A stretch of DNA of 29,572 nt from a virus. Its lineage: Duplodnaviria > Caudoviricetes. The DNA lies in the IMG/VR virus record IMGVR_UViG_3300037560_000082, positions 1 to 29,572 of that record. One strand, given 5' to 3'. The notes beneath the pieces are model-generated. The model had not been told where the DNA came from. It made no database searches and worked only from the letters and a program-made list of their open reading frames with translations. Within the stretch, counting starts at the first letter, position 1. The number at the start of each line of letters is the position of its first letter. Shown here piece after piece: positions 12,346-25,696 of the stretch. The position numbers and the translations under genes were made by a program.

Positions 12346-13039
12346 GCCGGAACAATTCCTCCTTGGTCGAGTGAATCATCGGCACAGCAAAAACGTCCAC
12401 GTCCATCTCCTCAGTCTCAAAGATCGGATCGTAGGTACGTACACGATCATCGAGCCTGGCATCTTTTATCCCAAAGCCATAATCGCCATTGATGATGTGA
12501 GGGCCACCTTCGACTTGAAGTGCAGCGAAACCCTGGCTCATCGCAATAACTGAGCAAGCCTGCATCGCTTCATCGTTATCTTCAACGACGCCGACTTCAA
12601 CAATGGTCTGGTGCGAGACCTCCTTGGTATTATTCCAGGGCCATCGCTCGTCTTCGGCGCATACGAATAACCGCTCTGTGTTCTTCATCTGAGATAGGCG
12701 CGGACCAATGCGCGGACCAATGCGCGGACCAATGCGCGGACCAACCTGAATTTGTTTCTCGGTCTCGACCAGCTCACCGAATGCTCGCTGCATCAGCTCA
12801 CTGGGATCCATCAGCTTCCACGATTCAGGATCATGGAAATCAGTTTGTTCAAACAGTTGAACATCCCAGGGCTTGGCAGTATCGATGCCGTAGAAGTATT
12901 TTTCGGTGGCCTGTTCGTACCTCCAGGTGCCACCTCGAAGGGTATCTGGCAGGAACTTGGGAGCCAGGCGCGTAGCGATGGCGACTGTGGCCATGGCGCA
13001 TGCCAATCCCTCAAAAAACGCTCTCCTGGTGAGCTTCAT
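12338..13039 (-). CDS. Tat-like signal peptide protein with (GPRI) repeat
   Basis: MKLTRRAFFEGLACAMATVAIATRLAP. The N-terminus resembles that of 10937-11164. Confidence 0.7.
   Translation of the reverse strand: MKLTRRAFFEGLACAMATVAIATRLAPKFLPDTLRGGTWRYEQATEKYFYGIDTAKPWDVQLFEQTDFHDPESWKLMDPSELMQRAFGELVETEKQIQVGPRIGPRIGPRIGPRLSQMKNTERLFVCAEDERWPWNNTKEVSHQTIVEVGVVEDNDEAMQACSVIAMSQGFAALQVEGGPHIINGDYGFGIKDARLDDRVRTYDPIFETEEMDVDVFAVPMIHSTKEELFRHG
12698..12744. repeat. 12-bp tandem repeat (GCGCGGACCAAT) x3.9, in frame
   Basis: Read directly. Encodes GPRIGPRIGPRIGPR. Confidence 0.95.
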
Positions 13040-15182: not shown

Positions 15183-15241
15183 CTGCTCCTTGATGACTAT
15201 ACCCTCAGCGAAAGACTACGATAAAAAGGCAGAAATCTCAA
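15183..15241 (-). promoter_or_regulatory. sigma70-like promoter plus leader motif for the accessory cassette
   Basis: TTGAGA-N17-TAGTCT-N8-GGGTATAGTC-ATCAA-GGAG on the minus strand. Confidence 0.6.
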
Positions 15242-16240: not shown

Positions 16241-16303
16241 CTTGCAATCCTGTAGTCAATGCTCTATTGTCTCACCTGGGTACATTCAGTCAAGGAGTAA
16301 GAC
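16241..16303 (+). promoter_or_regulatory. Early promoter plus leader motif 1
   Basis: TTGCAA-N17-TATTGT-N7-GGGTACATTC-AGTCAA-GGAG. Confidence 0.7.
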
Positions 16304-16650: not shown

Positions 16651-16714
16651 CTTGCAATCCTGTGGTCACTGTGGCCTAATCGATCCTGGGTACAGTCAAT
16701 CAATGGAGTCAAAT
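16651..16714 (+). promoter_or_regulatory. Early promoter plus leader motif 2
   Basis: TTGCAA-N17-CCTAAT-N7-GGGTACAGTC-AATCAAT-GGAGTC. Near copy of 16241-16303. Confidence 0.65.
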
Positions 16715-18579: not shown

Positions 18580-18638
18580 ATGTCATGTGGTTGTCTTTCC
18601 TGTATAATGATCATTCGGGTACAGTAATTGGAGTCATT
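18580..18638 (+). promoter_or_regulatory. Early promoter plus leader motif 3
   Basis: ATGTCA-N17-TATAAT-N8-GGGTACAGTA-ATT-GGAGTC. Confidence 0.7.
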
Positions 18639-21751: not shown

Positions 21752-21780
21752 AGAAAAGGGCCCTCGATTGAGGGCCCTTC
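21750..21780 (-). terminator. Terminator between convergent operons (U-tract on the minus strand; possibly bidirectional)
   Basis: AAGGGCCCTC-GATT-GAGGGCCCTT, followed by TTCTTT on the minus strand. Confidence 0.8.
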
Positions 21781-21895
21781 TCGAATAAAGGCGACCGGAG
21801 CATCTTTGCCAGAATTGGCTATCGTGAAAGTGGGTACAGTCGCGGAGCCAGAAAGCGTAGGTTACGCCGGGTCGCCAGGGGTCGGTGCTACTTTA
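21752..21895 (-). ncRNA. Candidate structured antisense RNA (3' UTR or independent)
   Basis: ORF-free gap. Outer stem 21790-21798/21867-21876, inner stem 21816-21820/21846-21850, and an apical loop carrying CUGUACCC complementary to the leader motif. Confidence 0.45.
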
Positions 21896-21937
21896 TTTCA
21901 TCATCAGTGGTCCAGCGGGGCTTGCAATTCGGTGAGG

Positions 21938-22393
21938 TCACAATAGCACAGTCGGTTCCAGTTCAACAACCACCATTCCACCATCTACGATATTGCTCGT
22001 GCGATAGGCATGATGCTCTACGATCTGGTAGTCATCCATAAAAACTCCAGATTTTTGAAGGGCATCCTCCAGCATCTTGAATAGATTAGAGGTATCCCGT
22101 TTCCTCCGATCAGGCGGATAAGTCCAGAACGACATCTTCAATGGACAGCTCCAGTTCCTGGCTGCCCGGTCGCGCATCACAATGGACTGCACGTTGCGAT
22201 GGAACTCCTTCGCCTGGAATGTCGGATACACCTGAACAAATTGCTTGCCCTTGATGAACGGACCAGCAACACGGTGACCGTTATAATGATTGGCGCTTGG
22301 TGGCCAGGGTAACTCCAGTCTCAGCCCAGGTGGCTTTGCACTGGTGTCGCTGACTTCCAGTTCTCGTTGCTCCATAGCTTTGCTTGCTCCCAT
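21938..22393 (-). CDS. rusA: RusA-like Holliday junction resolvase
   Basis: LPWPPSANHY...PPDRRKRDTSNLFKMLEDAL...DDYQI. Confidence 0.9.
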   Translation of the reverse strand: MGASKAMEQRELEVSDTSAKPPGLRLELPWPPSANHYNGHRVAGPFIKGKQFVQVYPTFQAKEFHRNVQSIVMRDRAARNWSCPLKMSFWTYPPDRRKRDTSNLFKMLEDALQKSGVFMDDYQIVEHHAYRTSNIVDGGMVVVELEPTVLL

Positions 22394-25561: not shown

Positions 25562-25628
25562 GCGCCCCCTTCTCCGATTTAACTGTACCCTGGAGACACA
25601 TGGTATATGGCCTTGATTATGTGGTCAA
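25562..25628 (-). promoter_or_regulatory. Promoter plus leader motif for the replication operon
   Basis: TTGACC-N17-TACCAT-N9-GGGTACAGTT-AAATC-GGAG. Confidence 0.75.
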
Positions 25629-25632
25629 ATAC

Positions 25633-25696
25633 CTTGCAATCTGGTAGTCAAGCAGTCAGAATGTGGGCCTGGGTACGGTCGAAATTGGAGCCACAT
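25633..25696 (+). promoter_or_regulatory. Promoter plus leader motif for the recombination operon
   Basis: TTGCAA-N17-CAGAAT-N8-GGGTACGGTC-GAAATT-GGAGCC. Confidence 0.7.

Follow-up and report, generated by a model that had tools for sequence, protein, structure and literature searches.

In a tailed-phage record, IMG/VR IMGVR_UViG_3300037560_000082, we find a conserved folded element downstream of rusA. Judged from sequence, it most likely encodes an antisense RNA of a new family that would repress several operons. The window, meaning the whole 29,572-nucleotide (29.6-kb) stretch that was analysed, encodes terminase subunits, RecT, an exonuclease, an O-like replication initiator, DnaB and RusA. 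The element lies on the minus strand between the gene for the rusA-like Holliday junction resolvase (21938..22393, minus; stop codon 21940-21938), the last gene of the O-dnaB operon, and an intrinsic terminator hairpin (21753..21782, minus) that also faces the convergent plus-strand operon. That the element is real and conserved is evident from its relatives. We consider it probable that it specifies a trans-acting antisense RNA that binds the 5' ends of mRNAs and blocks the ribosome sites of six or more of the phage's own transcripts.

Two groups of relatives carry most of the evidence. Close relatives, here called clade A, were gathered by RusA scans and pattern scans, and the clade A set comprises 17 distinct members with DNA downstream of rusA. 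A second group, clade B, was found through a profile of a gene for a 273-amino-acid (aa) protein and contributed 8 distinct RNAs; it is about 50% identical to clade A in the 273-aa gene and 82% in the major capsid protein. The structured core of the predicted RNA is 87 nt long (21790..21876, minus) and is closed by stem P1 (21876-21867 with 21798-21790). It contains an anti-Shine-Dalgarno (anti-SD) segment, UGGCUCC (21844..21850, minus), whose GCUCC is invariant in 17/17 clade A and 8/8 clade B members, and a seed, GACUGUACCC (21832..21841, minus), that is invariant in all 17 of clade A. The element follows rusA in every one of these 17 relatives, with GCUCC and seed unchanged. The stem arms, anti-SD and seed that a preliminary description, made from this DNA alone, had read on the minus strand between rusA and the terminator were all located. 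Its nested stems hold up as well, but its picture of a seed displayed in an apical loop holds in part: only ACCC is in the loop of the predicted fold, and the remaining seed lies within a ladder of 2-bp helices. The length of about 140 nt given there is to be replaced by 87 nt for the core, 125 nt from stem to terminator and about 180 nt from the predicted start.

The fold of the region has a z score of -2.87 with the terminator counted in, and the core by itself reaches z <= -2 in 13 of the 17 relatives. Across clade A, 95.9% of the cells of the consensus structure are paired and 7 pairs are doubly changed, which 0 of 500 shuffles reach. Helices outside the terminator hold 24 G-U cells against 3 A-C cells, and the minus strand is therefore favoured. 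Read on the plus strand, the copy is preceded by a -10-like TAnnnT in only 1/17 relatives (the window itself) and is followed by a start codon past its GGAG in only 1/17; the earlier statement that it leads to no gene thus stands, and a seventh sense leader was rejected on these same counts. GCUCC is kept in both clades although the plus-strand copy leads to no gene.

The complement of the seed recurs at gene starts. With at most one mismatch, GGGTACAGTC has 7 matches in the window against 1.14 expected, a number that 0 of 100 shuffles reach, and the seven are the element itself and six leaders, with none elsewhere in the window; the complementarity to six leaders and their Shine-Dalgarno (SD) sequences proposed earlier was thus recovered. 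By our own reading of the sequence, a -10 box stands 7-9 nt ahead of each leader site and GGAG follows 3-7 nt after it, so that with predicted starts the site falls at about +1 to +3 of the transcript. Leader 5 (25572..25590, minus; start 25561) belongs to the O-like replication initiator, the first gene of the O-dnaB-rusA operon, and leader 6 (25671..25690, plus; start 25697) to recT, which opens the recT-exonuclease operon. At the head of three rightward early units stand leader 2 (GGGTACATTC, 16278..16297, plus; GGAG; start 16304), leader 3 (GGGTACAGTC, 16688..16708, plus; GGAG; start 16715) and leader 4 (GGGTACAGTA, 18617..18633, plus; GGAG; start 18639), and leader 1 (GGGTATAGTC, 15186..15204, minus; GGAG; start 15180) precedes a 120-aa open reading frame (ORF) at the head of a long leftward run toward terL. 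Predicted duplex energies of the six leaders with the RNA range from -25.6 to -35.1 kcal/mol, ranking 1, 4, 6, 7, 8 and 15 of 861 start regions. No seed match was found within 3 kb of the element, and the targets are 3-7 kb distant. Beyond the window, a seventh target stands directly before an ATG (G001:C1:12026-12033, minus), and its orthologue bears its own clade's seed in both clades.

Support for RNA-leader pairing comes from co-variation between the clades. Clade B RNAs are predicted to adopt a three-stem fold with the same GCUCC, a related closing stem and a different seed, UUGUUACCCUC, in a loop, and in the O and recT leaders of clade B GAGGGTAACA(A/G) takes the place of the clade A site, its spacing from the -10 box unchanged. 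With the O and recT leaders located by gene anchoring, without use of the motif, the clade A site (seed A) was present in 8/8 O and 12/12 recT leaders of clade A, and the complement of the clade B seed (seed B) in 7/8 O and 8/8 recT leaders of clade B; the eighth clade B O site fell outside the cut stretch in the anchored count and was seen in a separate look. A third orthologous gene, encoding a 160-aa protein only 28% identical between the clades, follows the same rule, with seed A at 4/4 clade A loci and seed B at 4/4 clade B loci. Seed B is matched 0 times in the window; two clade B genomes show 27 weaker matches to seed A, and none of these falls at an O or recT leader. A relative that falls between the clades has a third type of recT leader with neither seed (L100:5560-5640); its contig ends before the RNA site. 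A second hairpin in clade B (L101:11555-11580 and equivalents) keeps UCC(G/U)UGUCGG in 8/8. In some members it shows a likeness to the anti-SD and seed of clade A, and it may be either an additional anti-SD loop or what is left of a duplicated module.

Variation among target sites within clade A points the same way. We kept 46 of 49 orthologous sites, dropping three at which other genes precede that orthologue; target positions 1-4 are invariant across the 46. Among the changes at positions 1-8, 18 of 19 (12 distinct events) are A>G or C>T and retain G-U pairing. This wobble bias has p = 7.5e-7 at the transition share of the promoters (0.31, 21/68) and p of about 0.002 if the share were 0.6, neither value being corrected for kinship. 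Since such changes preserve G-U pairs in the target core, RNA-RNA pairing is indicated. Together, the inter-clade co-variation and the wobble-type changes lend comparative support to the idea, put forward in the preliminary description, of an antisense RNA directed against common leaders.

The predicted RNA likely has its own promoter, because an extended -10 is kept and the clade B stem begins at start-site spacing from it. The candidate, TGcTATTGT (21940..21948, minus), lies within the last rusA codons, with a predicted start near 21933. TGnTAnnnT occurs in the same register in 24/24 clade A and B loci, where rusA invariably ends xTG-xTA-nnn-stop and so spells the motif, even as the encoded amino acids vary; xTA codons are rare in these genes (CTA 3% and TTA 5% of Leu, GTA 15% of Val). 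The clade B stem begins 5-7 nt past the extended -10, and the RNA there would require no 5' processing. This promoter replaces the TTGCAA-N16-GATGAT suggested earlier, which is present in the window but has its TTGCAA in only 3/17 leaders and both boxes in 1/17; moreover, in 3/17 relatives the whole leader is just 17-18 nt long. Read-through from the O operon is a possible second source of the RNA. The 5' leader (21877..21933, minus) varies from 17 to 67 nt in relatives and is absent in clade B. In the window it contains a mini-ORF, ATG-ATG-AAA-TAA (21904-21893, minus), and such mini-ORFs of 1-6 codons precede the stem in 13/17 clade A leaders against 2.2 expected from shuffles, with none in clade B; in some leaders the ATG coincides with the predicted start. 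The mini-ORF perhaps stabilises or gates the RNA.

A plausible course of events can be drawn from these features. Transcription would start at the extended -10 in the last rusA codons, a host-type promoter without a target site, and end at the terminator, so that the RNA would accumulate after entry. The free 5' end of a target mRNA (GGG) would enter the ACCC loop, much as RNA-IN enters the loop of RNA-OUT; we infer this step from the position of the target GGG, about +1 to +3 in every transcript. Pairing could then zip through the weak 2-bp helices to give 10 bp, after which the stem would open, GCUCC would cover GGAG and ribosome loading would be blocked. Replication (O, DnaB), recombination (RecT, exonuclease) and the other early operons would be damped together.

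Several observations weigh against this interpretation. The anti-SD is mostly paired in the predicted fold, and folding energy is neutral on strand, the minus strand being more stable in only 7/17 relatives. Of the 7 doubly changed pairs, 4 belong to the terminator and only 3 lie outside it, and such pair-change counts overstate the number of events because the sequences are related. The clade A model fails to detect the clade B RNA or to reach a more distant group described below; homology between the clade A and B RNAs rests, for this reason, on position, promoter, stem P1 and short motifs. Energies discriminate poorly: 9 non-target rows (6 places) fall within the best 16 by duplex energy, and two window leaders pair about as well with the clade B RNA as with their cognate (-28.2 vs -28.5 and -26.4 vs -27.4 kcal/mol). 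Leader 2 is mismatched at position 8, and a target in clade B (x21606) is located away from the early region. Finally, seed and leaders would also co-vary if all of them were sites of one protein.

This last point is the basis of an alternative in which a DNA-binding protein has GGGTACAG as its operator, placed over the transcription start, and the copy that follows rusA would be a seventh site, or decoy, in a structured 3' untranslated region (UTR). The constant distance from the -10 box suits an operator, all copies would co-vary with the protein, and one small helix-turn-helix (HTH) protein encoded after the portal gene is common to both clades (51%; L086:1583-1849, minus, and L168:5294-5515, plus). 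We nonetheless hold this to be quite unlikely: the site is non-palindromic, and an operator leaves unexplained the conservation of GCUCC where no gene follows, the placement of both clades' seeds in a loop, the dedicated promoter just before the clade B stem and the wobble-type character of nearly all target changes. Scans that covered 104 G003 ORFs and 81 ORFs drawn mostly from G006, for the most part above 45-65 aa, also showed no regulator, whether HTH, ribbon-helix-helix or of another kind, in the early region of these two near-complete relatives; they yielded one small HTH in the late region of G003, the HTH after portal and CsrA. Very improbable, in our judgement, is that the O-dnaB-rusA mRNA simply has the element as a conserved 3' UTR or as a structure that stabilises it, with the leader motif acting as an enhancer of the initial-transcribed-sequence or translation type. 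It does stand at the operon end before the terminator, and anti-SD matches arise easily, but on this account one would not expect a 10-11-nt seed to switch along with three orthologous leaders between clades, or a promoter to be kept against codon usage.

A different outcome of the same pairing deserves rather more attention, although we still regard it as unlikely. The same RNA, with or without a protein partner, might act on transcription, by early termination or decay or on the open promoter. Every target is 6-10 nt behind a -10 box, at the transcript start, and in some leaders the seed is far from the start codon (the clade B O leader; G006 49418); there is also a precedent for termination by pairing in the P4 CI RNA, as the accessible part of PMC4825925 describes. 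Against this reading, the anti-SD is invariant in both clades, the seed site of the 160-aa gene itself covers the ribosome site, 1-2 nt before the ATG, and in the most distant relatives the candidate RNAs would pair with SD, spacer and start codon, internal genes included. G-U tolerance and gapped pairing are also at odds with guide-DNA binding. Blocking of ribosome sites by the antisense RNA remains, to us, the better account.

As to what the predicted repressor RNA would do for the phage, a brake or timer of the lytic cycle is our first choice, at somewhat better than even chances, and a carrier-state or superinfection lock comes second, as a reasonable though less probable role; the lytic brake is preferred to immunity because no lysogeny genes were found. 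None of the three near-complete relatives (G003, G006, G007) has a tyrosine or serine recombinase, an S24 repressor or ParA in searches whose positive controls were detected. The recT/O junction, 135 nt long, is gene-free, and the divergent recT and O promoters overlap there (25591-25670). The preliminary suggestion of an RNA switch in place of a repressor fits both the absence of integrase, S24 repressor and ParA from these relatives and the empty junction. In JC1, a remote relative, a repressor and a regulator lie next to recT, and the genome has a serine recombinase. No antirepressor family was found among the 104 G003 ORFs or 53 window ORFs. A CsrA homologue is encoded in two clade A records (G001:C1:10156-10305 and G003:C1:52071-52223); CsrA could act on the same GGA ribosome sites, and its gene in these records is only a hint as a host clue. 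As a partner of the RNA it was rejected, being missing from 2/2 near-complete clade B records and from G002.

Rfam searches of the whole window, the element, the clade B element and 9 + 7 related loci gave only terminator-type or tRNA matches, in keeping with the earlier reluctance to assign the RNA to C4 or c4-2. With the C4 model (RF01695, gathering cut-off 45 bits), 0/4 records were above the cut-off, the best score being 12.7 bits elsewhere in G007, and neither the clade A nor the clade B element drew a C4 match at E<=10; with c4-2 (RF02944), 0/5 records had a match at E<=10. Even so, C4 of phages P1 and P7 offers a close parallel. Like the predicted RNA, it is a folded phage RNA about 80 nt long that pairs through two segments, the anti-SD lying 5' of the specificity segment; in the P1 C4 record b' is at 37 and a' at 51 of 77 nt, the same order as in clades A and B. 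According to the available portion of PMC5320573, its specificity segment varies between phage groups and its anti-SD is constant, and in the excerpted text of PMC12197685 C4 blocks translation; the part of PMC2864571 at hand merely lists c4 motifs. Unlike the RNA described here, C4 acts on targets (a1b1 and a2b2) that flank it in its own operon, controls icd-ant and belongs to a system with the protein repressor C1, whereas here the RNA would act on six or more leaders, each at a transcript 5' end and 3-7 kb distant, and the searches showed neither an antirepressor nor CI. C4 keeps a' and b' in separate unpaired stretches of a fold with three stems; the clade A segments are contiguous in one irregular hairpin, and clade B has a predicted three-stem junction with the seed in a loop and GCUCC predicted to be paired. 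In C4, RNase P generates the 5' end at the foot of P1; here a U-G junction precedes the stem in most clade A RNAs, and 16/17 have no 3' CCA after it.

Other antisense RNAs share single features with the predicted RNA. The P4 CI RNA likewise represses the phage's own replication operon through pairing (available part of PMC4825925), but it is cut from the transcript it controls and pairs with the flanking seqA and seqC, causing termination, whereas our candidate sits at the far end of an operon, likely has its own promoter and would have many distant targets, none within 3 kb. RNA-OUT of IS10 resembles it in the predicted manner of pairing, in that an antisense hairpin loop meets a free mRNA 5' tail and the duplex blocks the ribosome site (PMC4737173, in the portion available); the corresponding features here are the predicted unpaired ACCC and target GGG 7-9 nt behind the -10 box, with start sites predicted. 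RNA-OUT is, however, encoded opposite its single target and fully complementary to it, whereas the RNA considered here is encoded elsewhere, has two short pairing blocks and many putative targets, and shows no plus-strand gene start at the copy in 16/17 relatives. Hfq-type trans-acting phage small RNAs (VpdS, PreS) and cis antisense RNAs (sar, OOP, aQ) also tune phage development, but their action is on host mRNAs, by competition for Hfq or on a single overlapping gene, and none is described with a dedicated repeated target in many own leaders in the accessible sections of PMC12197685. Our literature search, mostly outside subscription journals, returned no paper that describes the predicted RNA or a phage RNA whose target recurs in many of the phage's own leaders. 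In PMC10690425 the seeds did not turn up in 6 supplement files, those other than 1, 2 and 4, and the RNA may figure in that supplement as an unnamed candidate.

A like pattern in the literature is that of the Start Associated Sequences (SAS), repeats of Cluster K mycobacteriophages. As the available text of PMC3203893 has it, SAS is an asymmetric repeat at many start regions whose partner is unknown, and in four genomes one reverse copy is tied to no gene. The sequence and the phages are unrelated to ours, and SAS stands at start codons rather than transcript 5' ends, any RNA partner of SAS being hypothetical. In CrimD (HM152767), which has 13 forward SAS copies at gene starts or intergenic starts, the single reverse copy (L216:28836-28848) lies in a 422-nt intergenic gap and is predicted to fold on the gene strand with the anti-SAS in a 10-nt apical loop, in one genome of high GC content. 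As a parallel, this modelled loop is a lead only.

Locus L001 is identical to the window across 17.6 kb, and the closest cultured phages, which infect Burkholderia and Ralstonia, have only single domains in common with it, at about 30%. The element has no match among 50,697 phage records, and a search of sequencing runs gave no holder of the RNA. One search for prophages of clades A and B in a genome collection was empty, and a second gave two loci only, a distant-group phage contig in a metagenome-assembled genome titled Desulfuromonadales and a short fragment. We left out L015, L020 and L021, which matched the clade A pattern (3/11) and have no protein in common with the window, and L164, which matched the clade B pattern (1/10) without the stem; duplicates (L025, L026, L030-L032, L035, L037, L039, L108) were counted once, and the contigs L041, L042, L045, L100, L102, L109 and L111 end before the RNA site. 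Apart from these matters, the window has an exact 12-nt tandem repeat within a 233-aa ORF (12698-12744).

More distant relatives came from a scan with the gene before rusA (about 50% there); 27 were examined, of which 15 were analysed further. They have a 375-aa gene and terS in common. In most of the 15, a resolvase-like gene is followed by a short hairpin and a terminator with a segment complementary to the phage's own SD-spacer-ATG regions, as in the candidate anti-start RNAs of L191 (10678-10760), L200 (10260-10340), L193, L197, L202, L203, L212, L214, L185 and L112; L211, L213 and L194 are further loci of the group. The complementarity extends over 18 bp in L191 and 14-16 bp in L200, and an extended -10 overlies the stop codon in 11/15. 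At one orthologous leader, cognate RNAs form a mean of 8.3 pairs against 6.6 for non-cognate ones (permutation p 0.001, with two leaders mis-anchored), and only 4/15 cognate pairs beat all shuffles, so that the signal is modest. That the arrangement is family-wide is a lead.

The antisense RNAs known from phages act, for the most part, on a single gene or operon next to them. A single RNA with purpose-built sites heading every early operon would apparently be repressor-operator logic carried out in RNA, and the natural seed pairs A and B would amount to ready orthogonal RNA-leader pairs. The pattern of a repeat at many gene starts with one reverse copy in a hairpin loop is searchable in any phage, and it suggests, in a form open to test, what may bind the SAS repeats of Cluster K. 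More speculatively, and with doubt outweighing confidence, we suggest that these phages form a family remotely related to Lessievirus in which the cI/cro pair was lost from the recT/replication junction and control of the early regulon passed to a single RNA repressor, transcribed from a promoter hidden in the last part of the resolvase gene. Seed and target 5' ends would then have co-evolved as lock and key at least three times, in clade A, in clade B and in the distant anti-start RNAs, the seed type would define protein-free immunity groups, and the SAS of Cluster K might work alike.
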